NCBI GenBank assembly: GCA_964236265.1
Contig: CAXSDE010000004.1
Location: 32,331-96,330, forward strand
Reading direction: 5' to 3'
From: an uncultured bacterium
Lineage (GTDB): Bacteria; Actinomycetota; Actinomycetes; JAVEEB01
Length of the DNA: 64,000 bases
Part shown: one piece after another, positions 748 through 55,471 of the stretch
Layout: each line of letters begins with the position of its first letter
How positions within the stretch are numbered: position 1 is the first letter of the stretch
The notes under the pieces: generated by a model
Database searches by the model: none
What the model saw: only the letters and a program-made list of their open reading frames with translations
Told to the model about the DNA's origin: nothing
Position numbers and translations under genes: made by a program

Positions 748-811
748 GTCAGAAGCGGCGGGAGTCAGAAGCGGCGGGGGTCAGAAGGGGCAGGGGTCAG
801 AAGGGGCAGGG
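748..811. repeat. tandem repeat, 4 x 16 bp (GTCAGAAGSGGCRGGG)
   Basis: Four adjacent copies are seen directly in the sequence at the 3' end of the DUF222/HNH gene. Confidence 0.7.
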
Positions 812-2446
812 GATCTCGACCACTGGCCGCGGTGTCGACGGTGGCGGCGGGTCGTCGGGGACAGGTTGCCGCGGGAGGGCGCGTGGGGGTGGCAGGGAGC
901 GTTCGTGGATCGCGCACCCTGTCGGGCAGATGAACCGGGGTGACGGGATCTCGGTGGGGGCGGCGGGGTGCGCCACGACGTGGTACTCGTGCCCGGTCCG
1001 CGTGATCCAGGTCAGGCGCCCGTCGCGGCGGAGGAGTTGCCACCCGCCGGCGTCTTTCATCCGGTGATGCCGGCGGCAGAGCGGCGCGAGGTTGCACGGG
1101 CACGTGTCGCCGCCCTCACGGAACTTCACGGTGTGGTCGAGGTCGCAGAGTTCGGCGGACCGGTTGCACCCGCGCATCCGGCACGTGCCGTCGCGGGTGA
1201 TGACCGTGTCGGAGCAGAACTGCGATGCCCGGTAGATCGTGGGGTCCATCGCGATGAGCGAGCCGGTGAACGGGTCGGTCAGCAACCGGCGGACCCGGGC
1301 GTCGGCGGTGATCAGGTCGCGGGCGAGTTGCGCGTGGATCGGCCCGTAGCCTTTCAGGATCGCCGGTTGATCGGTGATCCCGAGGAACGCGCCTGCGGTC
1401 ATCGTGACGTGGATCTCCGTCAGCGGACGGCCGTGCGCGGTCACCGTTGTCGGTGCGGCGGCGAGCTGGTCGCGGGCCCACGCAACGAGCGCGTCCGCGC
1501 GGAGCTGCTCGACCGTGCGGCCGGAACCGACGTGCCGGCGTGCGTATTCATCGACGGCGGCGCGGACCTCGCCCGCCTCGTCCGCCGTGACCCGGAACGC
1601 GAGGTCGGTCATCGCGTCGGGCTGATTGACAACGCACATCCCGCGGCCCTGCTTCGCGTCCTCATGCCGTTGCGCCGCCGCGTCCGGGTCGACGGCGAGG
1701 ACCGCGGTCCGGGTCGCTGTCACCAGCTCCCCGCGCGTCATCTCCCCCGCCACCGGCAGGACTCGGTCACACACCTCATCGACCCCGACCCCGTCGAGGT
1801 CCCGCAACTCCCGGACCAGGTCATCCGCCTGCGTCGCCAATAAGGACCCGCCGGCCAGGGCCGCCCCGACGCGCGCGAGAGGACCACACCGTTCGCGGGC
1901 CGAATGCAACCGGCCCGCCGCGGTCACCGGCGCCAACCGCATCGCCATGGCGACCTCTTCCCGCCCGAAATCGTCCAAGCTCCGCTTCGACCGCCCGGCC
2001 AGTGCCACGACCGCCGCGTCCGTGCGCGCGGTCACCCATCCGGTGACCCGGACCCACACCGACAGCAGGTCAGCCGCGGCCCACGCCGGCCATCCCGCCG
2101 CCCGCCGCTCCAGCTCCGGGACCCGGGTCAGGGCATGCGCGAGCTCCACCACCCGCGGCGACGGCGGCTCGGTCGACAGCCAGCGCAGCAGGTCACCGAC
2201 CGGGACCAATCCCAGGACCTGCTCGACGTCCCATTCCCCGATGAACGCGGGCACATCGAGCTCCCCGCGCTCCAACAAGTGCGCCGGGCACTCACACTCC
2301 ACCAGCTCCTCGACACCATCCCCGGACGGCCCGTCCCACCGGTCGAGCACCCACTGCGGGATCCGCGCCTCCGCTGACGGCGGCACCGACTGACGCACCA
2401 CCGACGGCAGCACCGGGTCAGTGATCACCGAAACATATTCGAACAT
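797..2446 (-). CDS. DUF222 / HNH endonuclease protein (REP13E12-type element ORF)
   Basis: C-terminal HNH motif CRMRGC...DLDHTVKFREGGDTCPCNLAPLCRRHHRMKDAGGW. The N-terminus MFEYVSVITDPV is typical of actinobacterial DUF222 proteins. The six-frame ORF extends to 2650 only because it reads into shifted gpgS remnant sequence; the internal ATG at 2446 is the likely start. Confidence 0.8.
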   Translation of the reverse strand: MFEYVSVITDPVLPSVVRQSVPPSAEARIPQWVLDRWDGPSGDGVEELVECECPAHLLERGELDVPAFIGEWDVEQVLGLVPVGDLLRWLSTEPPSPRVVELAHALTRVPELERRAAGWPAWAAADLLSVWVRVTGWVTARTDAAVVALAGRSKRSLDDFGREEVAMAMRLAPVTAAGRLHSARERCGPLARVGAALAGGSLLATQADDLVRELRDLDGVGVDEVCDRVLPVAGEMTRGELVTATRTAVLAVDPDAAAQRHEDAKQGRGMCVVNQPDAMTDLAFRVTADEAGEVRAAVDEYARRHVGSGRTVEQLRADALVAWARDQLAAAPTTVTAHGRPLTEIHVTMTAGAFLGITDQPAILKGYGPIHAQLARDLITADARVRRLLTDPFTGSLIAMDPTIYRASQFCSDTVITRDGTCRMRGCNRSAELCDLDHTVKFREGGDTCPCNLAPLCRRHHRMKDAGGWQLLRRDGRLTWITRTGHEYHVVAHPAAPTEIPSPRFICPTGCAIHERSLPPPRALPRQPVPDDPPPPSTPRPVVEIPCPF

Positions 2447-2576
2447 GTGTTCGATCCTACGCCTCGCCGGGGGGTGTTGCAAGAAGACTGGCGGGGGAGT
2501 GTTGCAAGAAGAATCGAGCGATGTGACGACTGTTTTCAGGCCGGGCTGTCCACAGCTGGAGTTGGCGCCAGCCCCG

Positions 2577-3155
2577 TCACCATCCCTGAGCAGGCGGACA
2601 GCAGGGGCCGACGACCCCCCGGTCGCACCGCTCTTCGCGTCGAGGAACACGACGAGGTCGCCGGAGGACGCGAGCAGACCCTTCCACAGCGCCTCGCCCC
2701 TTGCCGGGGCGCTCGCCCAGATCCGGCCGGATGTCCGTAGCGGCCAGCACGCGCGCGCCGGCCGCCCCGGCGACGGCGGCCGTGTCGTGCGTCGACCCCG
2801 AGTCGATCACCAGGACCTCGTCGATCAGGCCTCCCGCACCCATGAGATGCCGCCGGATCGTCGCCGCGATCGCCCCGATGGTCGCCGCTTCATTGTGGGC
2901 CGGCAGCACCACCGAGGTCGTCGTACCGGATGCAAGGGCAGCAAGATCGACCGCGTCGTACGAGCCGACCGTCCGCAGCACCTGGCCGCCTCCCGCCAGG
3001 GGCGAGGAATGCACCCGATATTCTTTCGGTTTGACGCCTCGTGGGCAGTTGCCCACACTGAGGTCAACTCCTCGGATCGTGCAACTCCCGGGGATGACAA
3101 CTCCATACCGCTCATCCAGAGGGGCAGAGGGACCGGCCCGGTGAAGCCCCGGCAA
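2577..3155 (-). pseudogene. glucosyl-3-phosphoglycerate synthase-like GT2 gene (gpgS-like), 3'-truncated by an element insertion
   Basis: VVLPAHNEAATIGAIAATIRRH...IDSGSTHDTA...PGKG matches the GpgS N-terminal half. After GKG the reading frame shifts. The shifted frame still reads EALWKGLLASSGDLVVFLDA (GpgS-like) and then diverges into the HNH element sequence. Confidence 0.55.
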
Positions 3156-3249
3156 CCATCACCGTCATGCGCGAAAGCGCTCGGCGGCGACAGGTGCCAA
3201 TTCCGGCTCAACGTCGAAAGGCGCTGGGGAAGATGAGGAAAGGCTCACT

Positions 3250-4509
3250 GTGACCATCTCTGTCGAAGCGCCCGCGGGCGCCTTCGGTCCTGCCACCGCA
3301 CTCGTCTGTCGCGAATGTGGCACGACGTATCCCCTCGGCCCGCAGCACGTCTGCATCGAGTGCTTCGCACCCGTCGAGATGGGCTACGACGACGACCGGC
3401 TCGCAGCCGTCACCCGCGCGAGCATCGAGGCCGGCCCGCAGAACATCTGGCGGTACGCCGGGCTGCTCCCCGCCCCCGCCGAGGAGTTCCGCATCGGCGA
3501 CGGCGTCGGCATGACGAAGCTCATCCGCGCCGACAACCTCGCCCGCGCGCTCGGCATGAAATCCCTGTGGGTGAAGGACGATTCCGGCAACCCGACCCAC
3601 TCGTTCAAGGACCGCGTCGCCGCCGTCGCCCTGTCCGCAGCCAAAGCGCTCGGCTTCGAAACCGTGGCCTGCGCATCAACGGGCAACCTCGCGAACGCGG
3701 TCGCCGCCGCGGCGGCGCGGGCCAACCTCAAGTCGGTCGTGTTCATCCCCTCGGACCTCGAGCCGGCGAAGATCGTGACGACGGCCGTGTACGGCGGCCA
3801 GCTCGTCGCCATCGAGGGCACGTACGACGACGTCAACCGGTTGTGCAGCGAGGTGGCCGGTGAGTTGCCGTGGGCGTTCGTGAACGTCAACATCCGGCCG
3901 TTCTACGCGGAGGGTTCCAAGACGATGGGCTACGAGATCGCCGAGCAACTGGGTTGGCGCCTCCCGGAGCAGGTCATCAGCCCCATCGCGTCGGGCTCGC
4001 TGCTGACGAAGGTCGACAAGGCGTGGCGTGAATTCTCCAAGCTGGGCTTGGTGGACGGCACTCCGTACAAGGTGTTCGGCGCGCAGGCCGAAGGCTGCAA
4101 TCCGGTCGCCGCCGCCTACGAGGCGGGCCGTGACTTCATGATCCCCGTCAAGCCCGACACCATCGCCAAGTCGCTCGCGATCGGCAACCCGGCCGACGGC
4201 CCGTACGCCATCGACATCGCCCGCCGCACCGGCGGCGCCATCGGCCAGGTCACCGACGAGGAGATCGTCGACGGCATCCGGCTGCTGGCGTCGACCGAGG
4301 GCATCTTCGCGGAGACGGCCGGCGGCGTGACCGTCGCGACGCTGCGCAAACTGCTGCGCGAGGGCAAGGTCGACCCGGACGCCGAGACCGTGCTGCTCAA
4401 CACCGGCGACGGCCTCAAGACGATCGACGCGATCGACCACGCCGTCGGCCCGACGGTCACGATCAAGCCGTCCCTCGACGCCTTCCTGCAGACGGGCGTC
4501 GGCCAGTAG
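3250..4509 (+). CDS. thrC: threonine synthase
   Basis: GTG start preceded by GAGGAAAGG. N-terminal Cys4 zinc ribbon (CRECG...CIEC). PLP motif SFKDRVA. 419 aa, typical for actinobacterial ThrC. Confidence 0.9.
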   Translation: MTISVEAPAGAFGPATALVCRECGTTYPLGPQHVCIECFAPVEMGYDDDRLAAVTRASIEAGPQNIWRYAGLLPAPAEEFRIGDGVGMTKLIRADNLARALGMKSLWVKDDSGNPTHSFKDRVAAVALSAAKALGFETVACASTGNLANAVAAAAARANLKSVVFIPSDLEPAKIVTTAVYGGQLVAIEGTYDDVNRLCSEVAGELPWAFVNVNIRPFYAEGSKTMGYEIAEQLGWRLPEQVISPIASGSLLTKVDKAWREFSKLGLVDGTPYKVFGAQAEGCNPVAAAYEAGRDFMIPVKPDTIAKSLAIGNPADGPYAIDIARRTGGAIGQVTDEEIVDGIRLLASTEGIFAETAGGVTVATLRKLLREGKVDPDAETVLLNTGDGLKTIDAIDHAVGPTVTIKPSLDAFLQTGVGQ

Positions 4510-4546
4510 CTCGCCGGTCGGCACGCAGCGCCGCTAGATTGGCGCC

Positions 4547-6958
4547 ATGAGTCGACGGGTGGGGCGCGTCGAGAAAGACACGTGCCGCGATTTCGTGCTG
4601 CCCGCACTCGCGGCGGCAGGGTGGGGCCCGGACATGATTCGCGCGGAGTTCCCGGTTGCTGCGGATCGAGTGATGAGCCGGGGAGGCTTGAGCAGAGACA
4701 TCGGTGACGGCCGTGTCGACTACCTGCTCGAAGCCGTGCCTGGGGTGGCTGTGGCGCTTGTGGAGGCGAAACGTGAGTACCGGCAGCCGAAGCACGGGCT
4801 GCAGCAGGCGATCCGCTACGGGATGCAGCTCGACGTCCCGGTCGTCTATGCCACGAACGGGCGGGGGATCGTCGAACACAATTTCGTGACCGGAGCCGAA
4901 CGGGCTGTCGAGTCCGTGGCCACTCCGGCTGAGCTGTGGAGCCTGTACGCCGAATTCCGCGGTCTCGACGACGATGGGATGCAACTGGTCTGTCAGCCCT
5001 TCAACCGCCGGCGGACGACCGCCGCCGGTGACGTCGTGAGCCCGCGCTGGTACCAGGCAGTGGCTGTCCACCGGGTGCTTCAGGCGATCGCCACCGGCCG
5101 CGACCGGGTGCTGCTCTTGATGGCTACAGGGACAGGCAAGACCTTCACCGCGATGCAGATCGTGGCGAAACTCCGGGGTTTCGAGGCCATCAAGCATCCC
5201 GAACGGAACTATCGAGTCCTCTACCTCGCGGACCTCGACGTCCTTCTCTCCAGCCCGATGAAAAAGGACTTCATGCCGGCGTTCGGATCGGAGCCCCTCC
5301 ATCGCGTGAAGGGGGGCGCCTCCTTCAGTCGTGAGATCTACTTCGCGAGCTATCAGGCGATGACTGGACAAGGAGACGCCGACGCTCTCTTCGGCGACTA
5401 TCCACGTGATTTCTTCGACTTGGTCATCGTCGACGAGTGCCACCGGGGCAGCGCGTCGGCGGATTCCTCGTGGCGCCGGGTGCTCGACCATTTCGCGACC
5501 GCCGTGCAGCTGGGCCTCACGGCGACTCCGAAGCAGGACGCAGAGGTCGACAGCTACGAATACTTCGGTGACCCCGTTTTCACGTATTCACTGCGCCAGG
5601 GCATCGAGGAGGGGTATCTCGCGCCGTACCGGGTGCGCCGAGTCGTTCTGAGCCCGGACGCGGACGGCTGGTCGCCGTCGCCCGGCGAGCTCGACAGGTT
5701 CGGCCGAGACATCCCGGAGGGTAAGTACTCGACCAAAGATTTCGAGCGTGCCGTGTCATTGGTCGCGCGGACCAGGCTGGCCGCGCGTCACCTCTCGGCG
5801 ACCCTTCGGCAGGACCCTTCGGCTCGAACGATGGTGTTCTGCGTCGACATGGAGCACGCGCAGGATATGCGAACTGCCTTGGTCGAGGCCAACCCCGATC
5901 TCGTACGTGATGACCCGGAATGGGTGGTGCGCATCGTCGGTGACGAGCCCGAGAAGGTGCGGCTACTCGAAGCCTTCATGGACCCAGAGGCAAGCACGCC
6001 TGTCGTCGCGACGACCTCGAAGATGCTCTCGACCGGGGTCGACGTCGAGGACCTCAAGTTGGTCGTCCTCTTTCGCCCCGTGGGCTCGATGGTCGAGTTC
6101 AAGCAGATCATCGGCCGTGGCACTCGGCTCTATCCGGAGAAGGGCAAGACTTCCTTCGAGATCATCGACTACGTCGGAGCGAGCGCGAAGTTCAGCGATC
6201 CCGACTTCGACGGTGTGCCGATCCGCGTACGCATCGAGTCGGTCGACGCCGACGGCGACGTGACCACCTCCACGGAGGTGCCGACTGGCGTCGACACGCC
6301 GGAGTCTCCACAAGTGATGCTCGCCGAGCCGGTGCCGCCCTTCCTGGCACACAACCCGGACGAAGAGCTGATGCCGGGGACGGGGGACTCTCTTCGCGGG
6401 AAGCTCTACGTCGATGACGGCGAGTTCGAGGTCGTTGCGGAAGCGAGGCTGGTCCCGGACCTCTCGACCGGCCGGACGGTCTTGGTCGAATACCGCCAGT
6501 ATGTGGCCGGGGCCGTGCGGGCGATCTCCGTGTCCGCGGAAGAGTTCACCGAACGGTGGTCCAGCTCGACGACGCGCGAGGCAGTCCTGGCGGAGCTCGC
6601 ATCGCGGGGAGTGGTGCTGTCCGAGCTCGGGGGCGACGACGCGTCGGACCCGCTGGACCTTCTGCTGCAGGCAGCGTGGAACGTCCCCGGTCTCACGAGA
6701 TCCGAACGGGTCCGTCGCGTGCGGACGGCGCATGCAGGTGAGCTTGCCGCCCTGTCGGCCACCGCGCGCAACGTCCTCAGTGCGCTACTCGACCGCTACG
6801 CAACGCATGGCGTCGAAGAGATCATGTCGGGAGAGCTCCTCGTCGTCGAGCCCTTCCGCACCCTCGGGTCGCCGACCGAGCTGGCCGGCGCGTTCGGCGG
6901 AGCGGCAGCCTGGCATGAGTCAGTCGAAAGACTCCAGGCCTGGCTGTACTCAGCGTAA
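4547..6958 (+). CDS. hsdR: type I restriction enzyme R subunit (EcoEI-like HsdR)
   Basis: HSDR_N-like N-terminus. Helicase motif I LLMATGTGKTFTA and motif II VIVDECHRG. C-terminal EcoEI_R_C-like region. 803 aa. Confidence 0.9.
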   Translation: MSRRVGRVEKDTCRDFVLPALAAAGWGPDMIRAEFPVAADRVMSRGGLSRDIGDGRVDYLLEAVPGVAVALVEAKREYRQPKHGLQQAIRYGMQLDVPVVYATNGRGIVEHNFVTGAERAVESVATPAELWSLYAEFRGLDDDGMQLVCQPFNRRRTTAAGDVVSPRWYQAVAVHRVLQAIATGRDRVLLLMATGTGKTFTAMQIVAKLRGFEAIKHPERNYRVLYLADLDVLLSSPMKKDFMPAFGSEPLHRVKGGASFSREIYFASYQAMTGQGDADALFGDYPRDFFDLVIVDECHRGSASADSSWRRVLDHFATAVQLGLTATPKQDAEVDSYEYFGDPVFTYSLRQGIEEGYLAPYRVRRVVLSPDADGWSPSPGELDRFGRDIPEGKYSTKDFERAVSLVARTRLAARHLSATLRQDPSARTMVFCVDMEHAQDMRTALVEANPDLVRDDPEWVVRIVGDEPEKVRLLEAFMDPEASTPVVATTSKMLSTGVDVEDLKLVVLFRPVGSMVEFKQIIGRGTRLYPEKGKTSFEIIDYVGASAKFSDPDFDGVPIRVRIESVDADGDVTTSTEVPTGVDTPESPQVMLAEPVPPFLAHNPDEELMPGTGDSLRGKLYVDDGEFEVVAEARLVPDLSTGRTVLVEYRQYVAGAVRAISVSAEEFTERWSSSTTREAVLAELASRGVVLSELGGDDASDPLDLLLQAAWNVPGLTRSERVRRVRTAHAGELAALSATARNVLSALLDRYATHGVEEIMSGELLVVEPFRTLGSPTELAGAFGGAAAWHESVERLQAWLYSA

Positions 6959-6999
6959 ATTTTAGTTACAGGTCGTGAGACTCAGATGAAACTAAAAAT

Positions 7000-7623
7000 A
7001 TGGATGAGTGCTACGGTCGCTCAGTGCCCGGTCCCCGACAGGAGCTCCGTCAGAAACTGACGGCACTCGCCTTCTCGCAGTCTGGCTACTTCACGGCGTC
7101 TCAGGCTCTGTCGGTGGGCTACACCTACCAGGCGCAGAAATATCACGTCGACCACGGAAACTGGCTTCGGGTGGACCGCGCGCTTTTTCGCCTCCCCCAC
7201 TGGCCCGCCGATCGTGCCGACTCCTTCGTGCGGTGGTCGCTCTGGAGCGGCGGGCGGGGCGTCGTCTCCCACGAGTCCGCCCTGGCTGTGCACGAGTTGT
7301 CGGACATCGACCCCTCGCGCGTCCATCTCACCGTCGACCCCACTTTCCATACGCGAGACGACGCGGTGGTGCTTCACGTCGCACAACTCCGAGATGACGA
7401 GATCGACAGGCGTGGGGCGTGGGGCGTGACCACGCCTATGCGCACCCTTCTCGACGCCGCCGCCTCGGCCCTTTCCCAAGAGCATGTCGACGGCGCCGTC
7501 TCTGACGCCCTCCGGCTCGGACTCATCACGAGACGCGGTCTCCTCGCAGTGACGGATGGCAGCGACCTCATGGCTGCGCTGCGGCTCGAGCGCGCGTTGG
7601 CGAGTGCGGAGGCGCACCAGTGA
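7000..7623 (+). CDS. abiEi: AbiEi-family antitoxin / transcriptional regulator (type IV TA)
   Basis: 207 aa with the COG5340/AbiEi architecture (N-terminal wHTH, C-terminal domain). Its stop overlaps the GTG start of the downstream nucleotidyltransferase toxin gene (GTGA). It sits directly after an AT-rich spacer. Confidence 0.7.
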   Translation: MDECYGRSVPGPRQELRQKLTALAFSQSGYFTASQALSVGYTYQAQKYHVDHGNWLRVDRALFRLPHWPADRADSFVRWSLWSGGRGVVSHESALAVHELSDIDPSRVHLTVDPTFHTRDDAVVLHVAQLRDDEIDRRGAWGVTTPMRTLLDAAASALSQEHVDGAVSDALRLGLITRRGLLAVTDGSDLMAALRLERALASAEAHQ

Positions 7624-8490
7624 CGGGGTCCGACGCCGCACGCAATCTCGGCCATCGTGTGCGGGAAAGCGCTGCAGCGAGGGGGATCGACGCCGCGCGT
7701 CTGAGGCGTCAATTGGTATTTCAACGGATCCTGGCCCGTCTCGCCCCGACTGGCCTGTGGGTGCTCAAGGGCGGCTATTGCCTCGAAGTCCGGCTCGACA
7801 CGCAGGCGAGGGCGACTCGCGACCTTGACCTCGCTTTGCTGTCGTCCGTCGTTTCCACCGTGCTCGACGTCCAGGATCTCCTGGGCGCAGCCCTGGAAAC
7901 CGACGTCGACGGGGACGGGTTCCGCTTCGACGTGGAACTGCCCGTCGCGCTGGCAACGGATGAGGCGGGCAATCGAGGCTGGCGCGCCACCGTGCACGCG
8001 GCGCTCGGCGGCGAGAGATTCGCGTCCATCAAGCTCGACGTCGTCGCGCGCGCTGCGGAGATCGAGGGAGGGACGGAGACGCTCGACGTTCCCTGCCCGT
8101 TGCCCAGCTTGACGTACGACGCGGTCTCGATGCCGGCAGTGGACGTCGCGCAGCATGCGGCGGAGAAGGTGCATGCCTATTCGCGGGTCTATGCGAACGA
8201 CCGGCCGTCGACTCGGGTCAAGGATCTCGTCGACCTCGCCCTGCTTCTTGATGCCGAGCTCCTGGACGACGCGCGCTGGGCGGCGCGGCTGCGACATGTC
8301 TTCTCCGTCCGGGACTCATCGCCCCCTCCGCCTGCGCTTCCACCACCACCCGTCAGTTGGACCGGTCCGTACAAGGGCCATGGCCGCCGAGCTGTCGCTG
8401 ACAGGGACCGACGTGGTCGCAGCGTGGCAGCGGGTCAATGCGAAGTACGAAGGCGCGATCGACCCCACCATCCAGGAAGGCGCATCATGA
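7620..8490 (+). CDS. abiEii: AbiEii/AbiGii-family nucleotidyltransferase toxin (DUF1814), apparently frameshifted near 8375
   Basis: N-terminal NTase motif (KGGYCLEV...RATRDLDLAL) typical of DUF1814. The C-terminal about 40 aa (MAAELSLTGTDVVAAWQRVNAKYEGAIDP, stop 8488-8490) lie in the +1 frame. Frame 0 instead runs on, with no stop, into hsdM. Confidence 0.65.
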
Positions 8491-9989
8491 CCAGCCGCGG
8501 GCATAAGAACGCAGAGCCGATGACGACGCAGGCCCGGCTCTCGTCCGTCATCAAGGAGTCGCGAAACATCATGCGTAAGGACGCCGGCCTCAACGGCGAG
8601 CTCGATCGGCTGCCGCAGATGGCTTGGTTGTTGTTCCTCAAGGCTTTCGATGACTTGGAGGAGCAACGTGCCGTGAAGGAGCGCGGCTATCAGCCGGCCG
8701 TCGCGACGGAGTTTCGGTGGTCGTCGTGGGGCAGTGACAGTTCGCTGACAGGCGACCCGTTGCTCGTCTTCGTCAACAACCGCCTGCTGCCGCACCTGCG
8801 CGGCCTGCAGGGGTCGGGCAAGGCCACCGACCCTAAGGACACGCTCGCTCGCGTCTTCCAGGACACGCGCAACCGCATGCTGTCGGGCTACTTGCTGCGT
8901 GACCTGATCAACCAGCTCGACAAGGTGCAGTTCACCAACCGCGACGACATCCACACCATGGCTCACCTCTATGAGTCGATGCTGCGCGAGATGCGTGATG
9001 CCGCTGGTGACTCGGGAGAGTTCTACACCCCGCGGCCACTGGTGCGCTTCATGGTCGACATGATCGATCCGCGGCCTGGCGAGAAGGTGCTCGATCCGGC
9101 CGCCGGCACGGGTGGCTTCCTGGTGGAGGCATTCGAGCACATGACGGCCGACGCGACCCTGACGCCCACGGCCATGCGGAAAGTCAAGGACGGCATCCGT
9201 GGCATCGAGAAGAAGCCGATGCCCTACTTGCTCTGTCAGATGAACCTCCTCCTGCACGGCATCGAGGAGCCGAACGTCGATGAGGCGAACGCGCTCAACT
9301 TCGGTCTCGCCGAGATGCGCAAGGACGGCGTGGACGTCGTCCTGACCAACCCCCCGTTCGGCGGGGAGGAAGAGACCTTGATCCAGACGCACTTCCCGAC
9401 GAAGTACCGCACCGCTGAGACCGTGTGGCTGTTTTTGCAAGCGGTCATGGCTCGCCTGGAACGGAGTAAGTCGGGTCGCTGCGCGATCGTCGTACCCAAC
9501 AGCGTGCTCTTCGACCAGGGTGTGGGCGGACGTATCAAGGCTGACTTGATGGCGCGCTTCAACCTGCACACGGTGCTCCGGCTGCCGAACGGCGTCTTCG
9601 CGCCCTACACCCTCATCCCGAGCAATGTGCTGTTCTTCGAGAAGGGCAAGCAGGAGCCGCACATCTGGTTCTACGAGCATCCGATGCCGGAGGGTCGCAA
9701 GAACTACACGAAGACCAAGCCGTTGCGGTACGAGGAGTTCGAGGAGTGCGCGACGTGGTGGGGTGGATCGACGCGGAGCGGTCGTGTCGAGAACGAGCAC
9801 GCGTGGAAGGTTGAAGCAGCGTCCGTTAGGGCCGCTGGCTGCAACCTCGACCTGCGTAGCCCAAACCGCGCCGACGACCTCGTGCACCGAGCGCCTGCCG
9901 GTCTAGTCGCTGAGCTGATTGAGGTCGAGCAACAGATCCTCGACCTCCTCCGTCAGCTTCAGGTCGACGTGGAAGCCTTCACGATATGA
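8487..9989 (+). CDS. hsdM: type I R-M N6-adenine DNA methyltransferase subunit
   Basis: HsdM_N-like start (LWLLFLKAFDD). SAM-binding motif DPAAGTGGFLVEA. Catalytic NPPFGG. ATG overlaps the abiEii stop (ATGA). 501 aa. Confidence 0.9.
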   Translation: MTSRGHKNAEPMTTQARLSSVIKESRNIMRKDAGLNGELDRLPQMAWLLFLKAFDDLEEQRAVKERGYQPAVATEFRWSSWGSDSSLTGDPLLVFVNNRLLPHLRGLQGSGKATDPKDTLARVFQDTRNRMLSGYLLRDLINQLDKVQFTNRDDIHTMAHLYESMLREMRDAAGDSGEFYTPRPLVRFMVDMIDPRPGEKVLDPAAGTGGFLVEAFEHMTADATLTPTAMRKVKDGIRGIEKKPMPYLLCQMNLLLHGIEEPNVDEANALNFGLAEMRKDGVDVVLTNPPFGGEEETLIQTHFPTKYRTAETVWLFLQAVMARLERSKSGRCAIVVPNSVLFDQGVGGRIKADLMARFNLHTVLRLPNGVFAPYTLIPSNVLFFEKGKQEPHIWFYEHPMPEGRKNYTKTKPLRYEEFEECATWWGGSTRSGRVENEHAWKVEAASVRAAGCNLDLRSPNRADDLVHRAPAGLVAELIEVEQQILDLLRQLQVDVEAFTI

Positions 9990-11125
9990 CCGTCTCGTGG
10001 TCGCCGGCGGGGCGAGTCCTTGAGTTGCAACGGCGTTCGGTCGAAGTTCTGACCGACCAGGAATATCATGAAATCGGTGTCAGATCGTTTGGCAAGGGCC
10101 TGTTTCAGAAGGAGCCGACGAGCGGTGCTAGCCTCGGTGACAAGCGGGTCTTCTGTGTCCGTACGGGTGACCTAGTCATCAGCAACGTGTTCGCATGGGA
10201 GGGAGCCGTTGCAGTCGCTGGGCCGGAACACGACGGCATGATTGGCTCTCATCGCTTCATGACATGGACATCGCGCGGCGACGTTGATGTCAGCTACCTC
10301 CGTCACTATTTTCTGTCCGATCCAGGGCTGGGCAATCTGCGTCGGGCCTCGCCGGGATCAGCCGGCCGAAACAGAACGTTGTCGATCGCGGCGTTCGAGG
10401 CCATTAAGGTGCCTCTGCCGAGCCTGACCGAACAGCGTCGGATTGCAGATCATTTAACGGACCTGGGCGCGATGTCCGACGTCGCTCGCACAGCGACGGA
10501 TCGACTCAAGGCCACTAGTCACAGCATCTTCGATCGATTGGTGCTAGTCCCCGACCACAGCAAGTACCCACTTGGAGACGTCGTACAGCTAGCTCGCGAG
10601 TCGGTCGATGTTGTTCCTGACAGGTCTTACAAGACCCTCGGTCTGAAGAATCGTGGGCGGGGATTGTTCGAGCGCGCGGAGTTTACGGGGGGCGAAACGA
10701 AGTATCCGCGGCTCTTCGCGGTGAGGTCCGGTCAGCTGGTCTACAGCAAGTTGTTCGGATGGGAGGGTTCGGTTGCCATAGTTCCAGATCGATTCGATGG
10801 GCGGTTCGTGTCGCCGGAGTTCCCAACGTTTGACGTCGACGCGGAGCACATTCTGCCCGACTACCTGGAGCACTTGGCCCAACACCAAGCATTTACCAGT
10901 CAGCTGGCGTCCTCAACGACGGGCATGGGGCAGCGTCGTCAGCGCGTGAACATCGACGATTTTCTTAACATCGACGTTCCTGTGCCGAGCGTTTTGGAAC
11001 AGCAGTCCATCGTCCGGCAGCTGGATCAAGTCAGGCACCTCGATCTCCTCATGCGCAACCGAGCTCGCCTTGCCGACGCGCTTCTCCCGGCCGCTCGGAA
11101 CGAGATTTTCAACGCGATGCGCTGA
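9986..11125 (+). CDS. hsdS: type I R-M specificity subunit
   Basis: Two target-recognition-domain halves with conserved HsdS spacer/coiled regions. Start overlaps the hsdM stop. GC content is visibly lower than the flanks. Confidence 0.85.
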   Translation: MTVSWSPAGRVLELQRRSVEVLTDQEYHEIGVRSFGKGLFQKEPTSGASLGDKRVFCVRTGDLVISNVFAWEGAVAVAGPEHDGMIGSHRFMTWTSRGDVDVSYLRHYFLSDPGLGNLRRASPGSAGRNRTLSIAAFEAIKVPLPSLTEQRRIADHLTDLGAMSDVARTATDRLKATSHSIFDRLVLVPDHSKYPLGDVVQLARESVDVVPDRSYKTLGLKNRGRGLFERAEFTGGETKYPRLFAVRSGQLVYSKLFGWEGSVAIVPDRFDGRFVSPEFPTFDVDAEHILPDYLEHLAQHQAFTSQLASSTTGMGQRRQRVNIDDFLNIDVPVPSVLEQQSIVRQLDQVRHLDLLMRNRARLADALLPAARNEIFNAMR

Positions 11126-11783
11126 CACTCGACCATTGGTCGCCGGCGACTATCACGTGATCGAGGAGCCGCAAACCTACGTCTGCACTGGAGCCTTGCA
11201 GTCGCTGGGTCGCTGCCACGTCGTCCGCGCTCGGGGCAACAGTCCCGCCGGGATGGTTGTGGGCAAGCGCGAACGACAACCCGTCATGGCGAAGCACGAG
11301 TGACAGGATTTCGCGGATCGGAACGGCGCAGTGACTTGCCGACCCCCGTGCGACGAGCACCGTCCGTCGTACACGATGTTGGTTGTCGGCGACCAGTAGC
11401 AGCAACTCTTCCACGGCGGTGTGGCCGATCAGGGGAACTGCAATGGCTGCAATGTCAGCCGACGACGCCAACGACCGGCCCTCGGGTGCCCCGATCGCCC
11501 GCCGCGCCAACGCGAACGCCGAGACCAGCCGGGCAGCCTTCGCGGGACCGATGCCGTGGCGGCGTGCGAGCTCGTCGGTGTCCGCCCGCGCGAGCCCGGC
11601 TACACCGCCCCACTCGGCGAGAAGCGCCTGCGCAAGGTCGAGGGCGCTTTCGCCGGGCCGACCAGACCCCAGCTGAATCGCGACGAGTTCCGCGTCGGAG
11701 AGCGATCGTGCGCCGTGCCGCTGCATTCGCTCCCGAGGCCGCTCATGGTTTGCCATGTCTCTGAGCGGTGTGCTGGGACTCAT
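11109..11783 (-). CDS. radC: RadC-like JAB/MPN-domain protein
   Basis: Helix-hairpin-helix N-terminus (ERPRERL...LSDAELVAIQLG) and JAMM motif HNHPGG. Convergent with hsdS, with a 17 bp overlap. The internal Met at 11756 is a possible start. Confidence 0.8.
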   Translation of the reverse strand: MSPSTPLRDMANHERPRERMQRHGARSLSDAELVAIQLGSGRPGESALDLAQALLAEWGGVAGLARADTDELARRHGIGPAKAARLVSAFALARRAIGAPEGRSLASSADIAAIAVPLIGHTAVEELLLLVADNQHRVRRTVLVARGSASHCAVPIREILSLVLRHDGLSFALAHNHPGGTVAPSADDVAATQRLQGSSADVGLRLLDHVIVAGDQWSSVSASR

Positions 11784-11840: not shown

Positions 11841-12308
11841 TCACGACAGGCGCTGCCCGGCGCGCAGCATGTTGATCGCCTTCGCTGCGCGCCGGTCACG
11901 CGTCGCGGCCTGCTTGGCCTCACCCACCCACACCGCGTACTCCTTGCGGTGCGTGAAGGCCAGCGCGTCGTAGCGCGCCGCGGCGTCCGGACTGGCGTCG
12001 AGCGCCCTCCGTAGTTCATCCGACACGACGATCTCGACCGGCTGGCTGTCCAGGGACAGGGTGATGTCGAGCACCGAGCCGTCCGTGATGCCCGCCTCCT
12101 CGCGGACCGCCTTGACGAAGCCGAGAACGGTGCTGCCGCCGGACACCATGAGCCTGGTGCGGAACGCATGACCGTTGACGGTGCCGACCACCGGCGCCCG
12201 CGCGGAGCCGAAGACCGCCTTGCCGTCGAACGGGCACTCGACCCAGCGGCCGCCGACGCCGTTCGCCTCGGTCAGCCGGCCCCGGAAGCGCACGGGCTCC
12301 GCGCTCAT
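11841..12308 (-). CDS. DUF1905 / YdeI-OmpD-associated family protein
   Basis: 156 aa from the internal Met (MSAEPVRFRG...). Domain order is DUF1905 then a bacteriocin-protection-like C-terminus. The upstream part of the 295-aa ORF is an Arg-rich artefact. Confidence 0.55.
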   Translation of the reverse strand: MSAEPVRFRGRLTEANGVGGRWVECPFDGKAVFGSARAPVVGTVNGHAFRTRLMVSGGSTVLGFVKAVREEAGITDGSVLDITLSLDSQPVEIVVSDELRRALDASPDAAARYDALAFTHRKEYAVWVGEAKQAATRDRRAAKAINMLRAGQRLS

Positions 12309-12829
12309 CGACCCGGTGCGGCAGCGTGGACACGACCCGCGGAGTCGCGCAGCGTCGACCGCACCTGCTCGGTGATGCGTTGTGCGTCGACGGCGAACAC
12401 GCGGCTCCGCAGCCGGACGAAGGACCAGGCGAAGCCGCCGAACGCGATCGCTGCCGGTCCCAGCACATACGCGCCCGGCGTGGGATCGCCGTTGACGATG
12501 GGGACGACGGTCATGACGGCGCAGAACGTGGCGACGACGGCGTACATCCACGGGACGACGACCTCCGCGAACGACTCCACGATCGTCGCCGTGAGTGTCA
12601 GCACGCCGCCGTCCGTCGTCAGCCGGCCCCTGAGGTGGGGGTAGGCGTGATAGCGCGACGGGAGCACGGTCCGCGCACGGACGGCTCCGTCCGCGCCCAC
12701 GCGCAGTGCCAGGTGGTGCGATGCCCACTCCCTGCGCAGCGAGTCGGCCCGCGCGGCGAGGGCCGCGAGGCCCCCGGCGCCGCTCGAGGGCCCCAGGTCC
12801 ATCGCCACGTCGCGCTGCTGCCGTCCCAT
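12305..12829 (-). CDS. hypothetical membrane protein (2 predicted C-terminal TM helices)
   Basis: Internal Met MGRQQRDV. Hydrophobic stretches WMYAVVATFCAVMTVVPIV and LGPAAIAFGGFAWSFV. The stop is coupled to the DUF1905 start (ATGA). Confidence 0.35.
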   Translation of the reverse strand: MGRQQRDVAMDLGPSSGAGGLAALAARADSLRREWASHHLALRVGADGAVRARTVLPSRYHAYPHLRGRLTTDGGVLTLTATIVESFAEVVVPWMYAVVATFCAVMTVVPIVNGDPTPGAYVLGPAAIAFGGFAWSFVRLRSRVFAVDAQRITEQVRSTLRDSAGRVHAAAPGR

Positions 12830-12917
12830 GCGGCGATTGTCGCGCCCCGGGGAGGGCACGTCGATCGCGGACCGGGAGAAGGTGGGCAGAGGTCTAGACC
12901 TGTTGTACGGTCGCGAG

Positions 12918-14627
12918 ATGCGGCGCAGAGCGGGCACACGCGCGGGCGTCCTGGTGATCGTGGCCGCCGTGGCCGCCGGCTGCTCGCGTCCGACGACCAC
13001 CCCGAACGCGCCGATCACCACGAACGCGACGACAGTGACAACGCCAGCCAGCCCCGCACCGAGCAGCAGCAGCCCGCTTCCGATCCCCTCCCCGAAGGAC
13101 GGCGACACCGCCATGACAGTTGCGACGCCCGACGCGGCCCTCACGCTGGTGCCCGCCCCGGCGCAGGTCACCGCGACGCCAGGCGGCCCGTTCGTCCTGA
13201 CCGAGGCGACCGCCGTGATCGCCGGGGACGGTGCGACGGCCGTCGCCGAGCAGCTCGCCGCGCTGCTGCGCCCGGCCACCGGCTATCCGGTGCCCGTGAC
13301 GCGCGTGACGACGGGCGCGACCCCCGCCCACGGCACGATCCGCCTCGCCCTCGAGGCCGCCGCCACCGACCTCGGCGACGAAGGTTACGAGCTGTCGGTC
13401 ACGGCGAGGGCCATCACGGTCAAGGCGCAAGCTCCGGCCGGCCTGTTCTACGGCGTGCAGACCCTCCGGCAACTCCTGCCGGTGACCATCGAGTCGCGGA
13501 CCTCGCAAGCGGGCCCGTGGTCGATCGGGGCGACGCACATCGTCGACACCCCGCGTTACCCGTGGCGGGGCGCCATGCTCGATGTCTCGCGGCACTTCTT
13601 CGCCCCGGCCGACGTGCAGAGGTACATCGACGAGATCGCCCTCTACAAGCTCAACGTCCTGCACCTGCACCTGTCGGACGACCAGGGCTGGCGCATCGCG
13701 ATCGCGGGCCGCCCGCGGCTGACCGAGATCGGCGCGCTCACCGCGGTCGGGGGTGGCGCCGGCGGCTACTACACCAAGCAGGACTACACGAACATCGTCG
13801 AGTACGCGGCCGCGCGGTTCGTGACGGTCATCCCCGAGATCGACATGCCGGGGCACACGAATGCCGCGCTGTCGTCGTACGAGGAACTCAACTGCAACGG
13901 CAAGGCGACCGAGCCCTACACGGGGATCGAGGTCGGCTTCAGTTCTCTCTGCATCGACGCCGACGCCACCTACGAGTTCCTCGACATCGTGCTCGGTGAG
14001 CTCGCCGCGATGACACCGGGGCCGTACCTGCACATCGGCGGCGATGAGGTGCAGACCCTCAGTGACGAGCAATACACGTCATTCATCGAGCGGGTGCAGG
14101 CGATCGTGACGAAGCACGGCAAGACGCTCGTCGGCTGGGAGGAGACGGCGCAGGCCACGCTCCGCGCCGGCTCGGTCGTGCAGTACTGGAACACCACCAG
14201 CAAGTTCGCGGCACTGCTGGCGAAGTCGTCGGCGCGCGGGGTGAAGCTCGTCCTGTCGCCGGCGGACCGCTCGTACCTCGACATGAGGTACGACGACGAC
14301 CACCCGCTCGGCCTCGAGTGGGCCGGCCGGGTCAGCGTGCTGCAGAGCTACGACTGGGACCCCGGCTCCGTGATCCGCGATGCGGCCCCCGGCAGTGTGC
14401 TCGGCGTCGAAGCGCCGCTGTGGTCCGAGACCCTGGAGACGTTGGCCGACGTCGAATCGATGGCATTTCCGCGGCTCCCGGCGATTGCGGAGGCGGGCTG
14501 GTCATCCGCCGGGCGCGACTGGGCGGCGTTCCGCGCGCGCCTGGCCGCGCAGGCGCTGCGGTGGGAGGCGATGGGCGTCAACTACCACCGCGCCCCGGGC
14601 GTCGACTGGCCGGCAGCGCGCGCGTGA
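12918..14627 (+). CDS. beta-N-acetylhexosaminidase (GH20) lipoprotein
   Basis: Lipoprotein signal LVIVAAVAAGCS. GH20 catalytic region HIVDTPRYPWRGAMLDVSRHF...LHLHLSDDQGWR...HIGGDEV. Confidence 0.85.
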   Translation: MRRRAGTRAGVLVIVAAVAAGCSRPTTTPNAPITTNATTVTTPASPAPSSSSPLPIPSPKDGDTAMTVATPDAALTLVPAPAQVTATPGGPFVLTEATAVIAGDGATAVAEQLAALLRPATGYPVPVTRVTTGATPAHGTIRLALEAAATDLGDEGYELSVTARAITVKAQAPAGLFYGVQTLRQLLPVTIESRTSQAGPWSIGATHIVDTPRYPWRGAMLDVSRHFFAPADVQRYIDEIALYKLNVLHLHLSDDQGWRIAIAGRPRLTEIGALTAVGGGAGGYYTKQDYTNIVEYAAARFVTVIPEIDMPGHTNAALSSYEELNCNGKATEPYTGIEVGFSSLCIDADATYEFLDIVLGELAAMTPGPYLHIGGDEVQTLSDEQYTSFIERVQAIVTKHGKTLVGWEETAQATLRAGSVVQYWNTTSKFAALLAKSSARGVKLVLSPADRSYLDMRYDDDHPLGLEWAGRVSVLQSYDWDPGSVIRDAAPGSVLGVEAPLWSETLETLADVESMAFPRLPAIAEAGWSSAGRDWAAFRARLAAQALRWEAMGVNYHRAPGVDWPAARA

Positions 14628-14780
14628 GCGGTGACCCACAGTGATCGTGGCCGAACCCCTGTCGACCGGCGCTCTTCACGTGTAGCGTGCCGTCAGGTCG
14701 CAACGCGGTCCCCAGCCGCCCGACCGCGTCGGCCCGTGCACTGCGGGTCGCACGACCATCGAACGACACCGGGAGCAACA

Positions 14781-55395: not shown

Positions 55396-55471
55396 ACGTC
55401 CCCCAACAACAGCCGCTCGCCGGCGCTTCCGCGCGCGAGGGGTCGTCCACGTCGGCCGTGCCGACTGTGCG

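Follow-up and report, generated by a model that had tools for sequence, protein, structure and literature searches.

A type I restriction-modification cassette with an embedded AbiE toxin-antitoxin pair and a convergent RadC gene, widespread in Actinomycetota

Positions 4547 to 11783 of a 64,000-nucleotide stretch of DNA from an uncultured member of the Actinomycetota (contig CAXSDE010000004.1 of assembly GCA_964236265.1; the whole stretch is referred to here as the window) encode a type I restriction-modification (R-M) system in which hsdR and hsdM flank an AbiE toxin-antitoxin (TA) pair and which ends with a RadC/JAB gene. The region represents a six-gene defense cassette that is mobile and widespread in Actinomycetota; it is not a one-off, as the same order is found in dozens of actinobacterial species. 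The initial annotation, made from the window alone, had recognized the defense block, which profile hidden Markov model (HMM) searches support, and had taken it for a local composite; this second view gives way to a six-gene order that is conserved as a cassette in many Actinomycetota. We consider it probable that the cassette is a type IB R-M system whose modification operon is headed by a MenAT3/AbiE-type TA pair and closed by a convergent RadC/JAB gene, with the regulation that is set out below.

A conserved six-gene order in Actinomycetota

An AbiEi-seeded survey of contigs representing one genome per species returned 328 related loci. The best 80 of the 328 were taken with 10-kb flanks and scored by tblastn with the six window proteins, and 60 of them had flanks that let every position be judged. 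The complete order, hsdR-abiEi-abiEii-hsdM-hsdS followed by radC in convergent orientation, was present at 42 of these 60 assessable loci; 9 of the 60 were stand-alone abiEi-abiEii pairs, and 3 carried abiEi alone. Across carriers of the conserved order, AbiEi identity goes down to about 50%. The carriers include Pseudonocardia, Agromyces, Propioniciclava, Knoellia, Gordonia, Janibacter, Terrabacter, Nocardioides, Dietzia, Geodermatophilus, and Isoptericola, as well as metagenome-assembled genomes (MAGs) of Acidimicrobiia, Solirubrobacterales, and Gaiellales, and the genes flanking the cassette vary from genome to genome.

RadC was found at 43 of the 48 assessable loci that bear R-M genes (~90%). 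An independent scan of metagenome contigs, seeded with RadC, yielded 11 loci whose flanks reached far enough past hsdM, and abiEii, abiEi, and hsdR were present at all 11. With HsdM as the seed, the closest relative (77% identity) had the full cassette, located between mfd and mazG/eno, and a Frigoribacterium copy was without radC. Identities to the window HsdR, AbiEi, HsdM, and RadC proteins are correlated (Spearman coefficients of 0.55 to 0.78); the coefficient with HsdS is about 0, as would be anticipated of a subunit whose recognition domains are swapped.

Successive genes of the series abiEi-abiEii-hsdM-hsdS overlap or nearly abut at their stop and start codons, both in the window and in most relatives. 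Among the 80 loci that have both hsdS and radC, these two genes share 17 nucleotides (nt) at their 3' ends in 24 cases, 29 nt in 18 cases, and 8 nt in 10 cases. The convergent transcripts must therefore collide, and mutual antisense effects are possible.

Other configurations were also observed. One locus (L166, 2411-5837) is a deletion variant in which hsdR and an operator-type inverted repeat (3342-3376) are immediately followed by radC, with abiE, hsdM, and hsdS missing. Another (L167, 6031-14388), on the Sphingobium baderi plasmid NZ_CP128179.1, has an EcoAI-family hsdR and a fused methylase gene, and two genes further on lies a convergent gene for a Mov34/MPN/PAD-1 (JAB) protein of 775 amino acids (aa). 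The link of JAB genes to the EcoAI-type R-M family may reach beyond Actinomycetota, or the JAB gene of this plasmid may be a separate system.

Gene content and junctions

The cassette genes in the window are as follows.

hsdR, 4547..6958, + strand: type IB (EcoAI/FtnUII family) restriction subunit, 803 aa
abiEi, 7024..7623, + strand: COG5340-type antitoxin/repressor, 199 aa from GTG 7024 (the longest open reading frame starts at ATG 7000 and has 207 aa)
abiEii, 7620..8490, + strand: DUF1814 nucleotidyltransferase toxin resembling MenT3/Rv1045, with a +1 frameshift
hsdM, 8487..9989, + strand: N6-adenine methyltransferase subunit, 500 aa
hsdS, 9986..11125, + strand: specificity subunit, 379 aa, with two target-recognition halves
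radC, 11109..11783, - strand: 224 aa, with UPF0758_N, HhH, and JAB domains; right edge of the cassette

Genes were called by listing and translating open reading frames (ORFs), followed by Pfam, PADLOC, and NCBIfam scans. The PADLOC run, which the initial annotation had recommended, matched REase_I, AbiEi, AbiEii, MTase_I, and Specificity_I. HsdR scored 782 bits against the NCBIfam EcoAI/FtnUII equivalog NF046051, above the cut-off of 550, and is therefore assigned to type IB; it also matched PADLOC REase_I (1.7e-185) and Pfam ResIII, Helicase_C, and EcoEI_R_C, and its translation retains an intact D..EAK nuclease motif, Walker A motif (GTGKT), and DECH motif. HsdM matched Pfam N6_Mtase (212 bits) and HsdM_N as well as PADLOC MTase_I (1.4e-174), with motif I DPAAGTGGF and motif IV NPPF (NPPFGG) in its translation, and a GGAAGG ribosome-binding site of its own lies 7 nt before hsdM. 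HsdS has two Pfam Methylase_S stretches and likewise matches PADLOC Specificity_I (8.7e-71) in two stretches, and the internal direct repeats D1 and D8 of hsdS are about 565 nt apart.

The AbiE assignments withstood the HMM check. AbiEii scored 84 bits against Pfam PF08843 (cut-off of 22.5) and matched PADLOC AbiEii at 1.9e-64, and GG, DLDL, KLDV, and K..D..D nucleotidyltransferase motifs are present in its translation as read by eye. AbiEi matched PADLOC AbiEi over residues 15 to 195 (3.1e-64) and reached only 17.4 bits against Pfam AbiEi_4, under the cut-off of 25; a PDB sequence search with AbiEi found no match. Its homologues (n = 599) carry the annotation "AbiEi family antitoxin" and are mostly 197 to 199 aa long, with a consensus start, MPGPRQ, that corresponds to residue 9 of the long ORF. 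Because the alignment with 27 homologues points there, GTG 7024 is the likely abiEi start, giving a protein of 199 aa, the usual length in the family.

RadC matched Pfam RadC (PF04002; 93 bits), UPF0758_N (PF20582; 90 bits), and HHH_5. It passed TIGR00608 (135.4 bits versus a cut-off of 133.85) and was narrowly under the cut-off for PRK00024 (171.7 versus 180). Its JAMM motif (E125, HNHPGG, S, D) is intact; across 19 cassette RadC proteins the E, H-N-H-P, and D positions are invariant, and the serine position is variable (PS/PT/PG). HsdR, HsdM, HsdS, AbiEi, and RadC all look intact in the window.

The distances that the initial annotation gave for the two ends of the block were verified: 37 nt separate the stop codon of the preceding thrC gene (4509) from the hsdR ATG (4547), and the convergent hsdS and radC genes share 17 nt at their 3' ends (11109-11125). 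The abiEi and abiEii genes are embedded between hsdR and hsdM on the same strand. Of the co-directional overlapping junctions that had been described, those within the downstream four genes stood, namely, GTGA at 7620-7623 (abiEi stop/abiEii start), ATGA at 8487-8490 (abiEii stop in the +1 frame/hsdM start), and ATGA at 9986-9989 (hsdM stop/hsdS start). An overlap between hsdR and abiEi did not, as these genes are separated by an AT-rich spacer of 41 nt, or of 65 nt if abiEi starts at GTG 7024.

Predicted promoters and operator

Three putative regulatory elements lie at the 5' ends of hsdR and abiEi.

Putative hsdR -10 element TAGATT, 4535..4540, + strand: 6 nt before the ATG; left edge of the cassette
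Inverted repeat TTTAGTT-N22-AACTAAA, 6961..6996, no strand: in the AT-rich hsdR-abiEi spacer; predicted AbiEi operator
Extended -10 element TGcTACGGT, 7009..7017, + strand: 6 nt before GTG 7024; predicted leaderless promoter of abiEi-abiEii-hsdM-hsdS

In Actinomycetota, a -10 element this close to the start codon is a signature of leaderless transcripts. The 5' sequence of hsdR in the window is TAGATT-ggcgcc-ATG, and 39 of 47 related loci have a TAnnnT motif 6 or 7 nt before the hsdR start codon, versus none of 1285 control windows inside hsdR. For abiEi, the corresponding sequence is TGcTACGGT-cgctca-GTG; 39 of 54 cassette loci have TAnnnT 6 to 8 nt before the abiEi start, with the extended form TGnTAnnnT in 27. 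This conservation suggests that the hsdR and abiEi promoters are leaderless.

The inverted repeat is specific in its position. The pattern TTTAGTT-N18-24-AACTAAA has a single match in the 64-kb window (6961-6996; 0.00 expected by chance), and exact matches in all fetched loci occur only just upstream of abiEi or, in L166, at the former abiEi position. The consensus from 44 loci is tTtta.TTt..cg-N-Cgt.aAACTAAAGtTttcaTtgAGTt; the repeat may also be given as cTTTAGTTT..CG-N-CG..AAACTAAAG, then TTGAGTT, or, in short form, as TTTAGTT-N-AACTAAAG.

We found no separate promoter region for hsdM in the cassette loci, and expression of hsdM and hsdS would therefore depend on the abiE promoter or on read-through from hsdR. 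At a related locus without abiE (L172), the gap between hsdR and hsdM is 77 nt and contains a Shine-Dalgarno-led hsdM start without the operator motif. The simplest reading is that the cassette probably has two promoters, the second of which, controlled by AbiEi, would drive abiEi-abiEii-hsdM-hsdS, because AbiEi proteins autoregulate, repressing their own promoters by binding inverted repeats there (PMC3985639, PMC7319586). With conserved -10 elements before both hsdR and abiEi and an operator-like inverted repeat at abiEi, the single transcription unit first proposed for the block is unlikely.

The abiEii frameshift and toxin loss

The frameshift that had been reported in abiEii is real in the assembly. 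Compared with intact homologues from Agromyces, L006, and L170, the window has one extra G in a GGG run at 8376-8378. The frame before the shift encodes AbiEii residues 1 to 253, including the motifs read as nucleotidyltransferase motifs, and the final 37 codons (MAAELSL...EGAS) are in the +1 frame, up to the TGA that overlaps the hsdM ATG. As the original frame has no stop before hsdM and the abiEii and hsdM frames coincide, the assembly contains a fused ORF:

AbiEii'-HsdM ORF, 7620..9989, + strand: 789 aa, product of the frameshift

This ORF comprises AbiEii residues 1 to 253, 36 out-of-frame residues, and the entire HsdM. The public annotation of the source contig has the same 789-aa fusion (P0241, with PF08843 and PF02384). 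The PADLOC AbiEii match is limited to profile positions 13 to 244 of 310. Residues 8 to 275 of the repaired AbiEii align to M. tuberculosis Rv1045/MenT3 (PDB 6y5u; E value of 1.7e-9), the closest solved structure, in which the displaced segment matches the C-terminal end. The repaired protein has a threonine where we take the phospho-serine of MenT3 to sit.

Because the one-nucleotide insertion costs the toxin its last 37 residues and joins its frame to hsdM, the toxin layer in the window is probably dead or altered. Free HsdM is probably still made, since hsdM keeps its own ribosome-binding site. The AbiEii-HsdM fusion is a by-product of the frameshift. A recurrent fusion of this kind was considered and rejected: the longer HsdM relatives P0286 (685 aa) and P0347 (713 aa, from a Gordonia amarae MAG) are instead HsdM proteins with a C-terminal half-size HsdS that has a single recognition domain. 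Programmed frameshifting was likewise rejected, as our reading of the site revealed no slippery heptamer and the homologues are single-frame.

The frameshift could also be an assembly or sequencing artefact, with the toxin intact in the organism. The shift results from one additional G within GGG, and the source appears to be a metagenome-type assembly, whose best ThrC match is 91% identical. A run of 3 nt is short for a homopolymer error, however, and a second assembly (L001, Logan contig of ERR10807086) is 100% identical over 4981-8503, although it may derive from the same reads. Moreover, abiEii has been disrupted independently in other genomes: L005, L016, and L068 are frameshifted, L016 also has an in-frame stop, as does L064, and in Propioniciclava soli (L008, 10603-10740) an internal deletion reduces abiEii to a 62-aa ORF. 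The 33-residue C-terminal tail of that ORF matches AbiEii (MAAEIGLNETTLDAAAALVRRFYMSAFDDEEPQ), and the abiEi gene and the hsdM junction are retained. We therefore regard an artefact as improbable. Loss of AbiEii with AbiEi kept would fit a continuing need for AbiEi and its promoter, for which it is weak evidence.

Horizontal acquisition and genomic setting

The window has a GC content of about 70%, as in Actinomycetota. The cassette is at 64.5%, versus 70.9% for the rest of the window, and the minimum among 90 windows of the same size outside the cassette was 68.5%. Within the cassette hsdS is lowest (59.3%), in agreement with the lower hsdS GC pointed out initially. GC content at third codon positions (GC3) is 69 to 85% in cassette genes, versus 90 to 93% in thrC, the GH20 gene, and the dynamin gene.

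The gene directly 5' of the cassette is the following.

thrC, 3250-4509, + strand: gene for a ThrC-like PALP enzyme

The best match to this ThrC protein is 91% identical (L085), and the next are about 75% identical, in Mycobacteriales MAGs. The L085 contig aligns to the window up to the thrC stop codon at 4509 and resumes at 14629 with a cold-shock gene and then dynamin-like genes, which directly follow thrC in this closest relative. The interval between 4509 and 14629 measures about 650 nt in L085 versus 10.1 kb in the window. On the strength of this comparison and of its lower GC and GC3, the cassette is best explained as horizontally acquired and as an insertion in this genome; the suggestion that the block is foreign to its site thus holds. 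The opposite possibility that the initial annotation had raised, an ancient core arrangement with native GC, is borne out in one half: the order is conserved, but in a mobile unit with non-native GC.

The rest of the 10.1 kb that is absent from L085 (11841-14627) contains a DUF1905/OmdA gene (- strand, within 11841-12728) and a GH20 beta-hexosaminidase gene (12828-14627). These two genes have native-like GC, so that only the cassette is compositionally odd within the extra 10.1 kb. Because both are absent from L085, the site varies beyond the cassette.

We found no flanking repeats or transposon ends around the cassette, no tRNA gene at the insertion site (the sole tRNA gene in the window is at 55471), and no integrase among the annotated ORFs adjoining the cassette. 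A search of IMG/VR for carriage by phages gave one distant AbiEi match only (45%). AbiEi at an identity of at least 60% was found on no plasmid, and the best plasmid AbiE pairs are stand-alone. The cassette of Propioniciclava soli (L008) lies near a TrwC relaxase, an integrase, a GmrSD enzyme, and a MazEF pair.

Further upstream in the window, an S-adenosylmethionine (SAM) riboswitch (RF00162; 74.5 bits versus a gathering score of 44.4) occupies 3109-3239 on the + strand, directly upstream of thrC. Because of this position, thrC is probably a SAM-regulated ThrC paralogue of the methionine pathway, not the housekeeping threonine synthase. At a locus with a 74% identical ThrC (L086), a ThiS-family gene comes next after thrC; no ThiS-like ORF was found in the window. 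A 617-aa ORF at 797-2650 (- strand), upstream of a glycosyltransferase gene and thrC, has a DUF222 domain (Pfam E value of 4e-14), a domain known from the HNH/13E12-repeat family of actinobacterial proteins.

Proposed mechanism and alternative explanations

In the mechanism that we propose, hsdR would be transcribed alone as a leaderless mRNA, and abiEi-abiEii-hsdM-hsdS would form a second, translationally coupled leaderless operon. AbiEi would repress the abiEi promoter through the inverted repeat, as AbiEi does in Streptococcus agalactiae and Mycobacterium tuberculosis, and would thereby also set the levels of the methyltransferase and specificity subunits. Upon entry into a naive host, the unrepressed abiE promoter would yield a burst of AbiEi, AbiEii, HsdM, and HsdS, after which repression by AbiEi would set in. 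Type I systems are not known to exert strong post-segregational killing, and an embedded TA pair would therefore stabilize the cassette; AbiEii would provide a form of stabilization, similar to plasmid addiction, that type I systems lack on their own. An abortive-infection layer is also possible, in which shut-off by a phage would stop antitoxin synthesis and lead to growth arrest.

AbiEii itself would act as a tRNA-modifying nucleotidyltransferase that is held inactive by AbiEi. Toxins of the Rv1045/MenT3 type modify tRNA acceptor stems and thereby block translation (PMC7450476), and COG5340 antitoxins neutralize such toxins through toxin phosphorylation (PMC7205606, PMC11375011). RadC would be a conserved accessory protein with a role to be assigned, which might be, for example, DNA or protein processing during restriction or restriction alleviation. 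Nucleic acid processing has been proposed as the function of the RadC family by Aravind and colleagues (PMC5512222). In a table comparing DNA-repair genes, no RadC homologue is listed for M. tuberculosis or Kineococcus (PMC2587704), which fits RadC as an accessory gene.

Several observations weigh against the proposed regulation. The L172 locus (6476-11573; HsdM identity of 65%) has hsdR-hsdM-hsdS with neither abiE nor radC and may show the R-M system in its ancestral state; members of this R-M family can thus do without AbiE. A generic sigma-70 scan returned 0 promoters, but it recognizes only promoters with a -35 element, and extended -10 promoters can work without one. A terminator scan found none in the hsdR-abiEi spacer and one terminator-like site, inside radC, and read-through from hsdR into abiEi is therefore possible. 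Both the promoters and the operator are predicted from conserved sequence and position alone. Finally, hsdR and hsdM are also pseudogenized in some loci, so that decay of the toxin is not specific evidence for an AbiEi that serves as a regulator only, and many of the loci come from MAGs, which are prone to indel errors.

A more far-reaching interpretation would be that the six genes form one integrated system, in which AbiEi controls the modification operon and times methylation in a new host, AbiEii supplies the addiction and abortive layer that type I systems lack, and RadC is a required accessory. We consider integration to this degree unlikely.

Still less likely, in our view, is that abiE is a selfish hitch-hiker that landed once between hsdR and hsdM and was kept as an addiction module without regulatory or defensive coupling to the R-M system. 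In favor of this view, type I loci often contain embedded TA pairs and other genes, AbiE is known to stabilize plasmids (PMC3985639), and a relative of the R-M system without abiE exists; the operator motif also stands beside 7 of 12 stand-alone abiE pairs and belongs to abiE, not to R-M. Yet a mere passenger would hardly account for an exact order, with tight or overlapping junctions, that is kept phylum-wide, for an hsdM without its own upstream region in the cassette loci, or for the retention of AbiEi where AbiEii has been lost.

The least favored explanation is a guard comparable to PrrC, in which the R-M complex would hold AbiEii latent until a phage anti-restriction protein frees it for fail-safe abortive infection. 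Its appeal lies in the position and co-inheritance of abiE inside the R-M locus, in the overlap of the abiEii stop with the hsdM start, by which both proteins would be made together, and in the precedent set by the toxin PrrC, whose gene resides within a type I locus (PMC12707154); it is nonetheless very doubtful, because AbiE brings a dedicated antitoxin encoded immediately upstream, AbiE pairs of 50 to 65% identity occur without R-M genes nearby (the 9 stand-alone pairs among the 60 assessable loci, and on plasmids too), cassettes persist with abiEii deleted or disrupted (L008, L005, L016, L064, L068, and the window), the R-M system is also found without AbiE, and AbiEii has no similarity to PrrC. 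The analogy to prrC drawn initially thus applies to the embedded position and not beyond it.

Comparison with known systems

Read as a type IB R-M system with an AbiE-headed modification operon, the cassette shares features with several known systems. Like the type IB EcoAI/EcoEI family, it has an HsdR above the EcoAI/FtnUII cut-off, an EcoEI_R_C domain, and the order hsdR-hsdM-hsdS. In the EcoKI and EcoAI families, hsdR and the modification genes have separate promoters, as proposed here. In contrast to the EcoAI/EcoEI systems, the cassette adds abiEi and abiEii at the head of the modification operon, has a tail-to-tail RadC gene, and has two promoters that both look leaderless. Of the plasmid-borne relatives in the EcoAI family that were examined, the nearest (44% identity) has no abiE.

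With the AbiE/MenAT type IV TA systems (AbiE of S. agalactiae and Rv1044-Rv1045 [MenAT3] and Rv2827c-Rv2826c of M. tuberculosis), the cassette shares a COG5340 antitoxin gene that overlaps a DUF1814 toxin gene and inverted repeats over the promoter, although AbiEi binding is only predicted here. It differs from them in that its bicistron runs without a gap into hsdM-hsdS and in that the toxin gene of the window is frameshifted. The inferred control also resembles that by the controller (C) proteins of type II R-M systems, in which a locus-encoded DNA-binding protein binds an inverted repeat at its own promoter, which also drives R-M genes. However, AbiEi is unrelated to C proteins, doubles as an antitoxin, and would control the methyltransferase and specificity genes, not the nuclease gene.

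As in PrrC/EcoprrI type IC and other type I loci with embedded defense genes, a co-oriented toxin or defense module lies inside the locus. AbiEii is a nucleotidyltransferase with its own antitoxin, whereas PrrC is an anticodon nuclease held by the R-M complex, and prrC is not known to lie between the R and M genes of the prr locus, unlike abiE here. Embedding in type I systems is itself a familiar theme, with PrrC as its classic case. It is established that defense genes reside inside type I R-M, BREX, DISARM, and Hma loci, and 96.7% of embedded genes are co-oriented (Payne et al. 2024, bioRxiv 10.1101/2024.01.29.577857). RadC is not mentioned in the main text of that study or in those of its supplements that were consulted. 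PADLOC would name the region "RM type I" plus "AbiE". Our literature search, which was made mostly without subscription journals, found no description of the six-gene unit, of an AbiEi-type operator heading a modification operon, or of a RadC partner; the conserved RadC partner and the shared promoter thus appear not to have been described before.

Significance

Type I R-M and AbiE systems are among the commonest prokaryotic defenses, and embedding is a recognized guide to the discovery of functional partnerships. The cassette offers a clean and phylogenetically broad case of such embedding, in which the methyltransferase genes appear to have a TA repressor at their promoter, a kind of R-M system without addictive effect of its own carries an addiction module, and RadC, a member of a family without an assigned function, is consistently attached. 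For this genome the meaning is modest, namely, a horizontally acquired R-M island whose toxin is probably inactivated, in a copy that is partly degraded. For the family, if the six genes do form an integrated system, the cassette would represent a distinct "type I R-M + TA + JAB" class of defense and would provide the first defined context for RadC in Actinomycetota.

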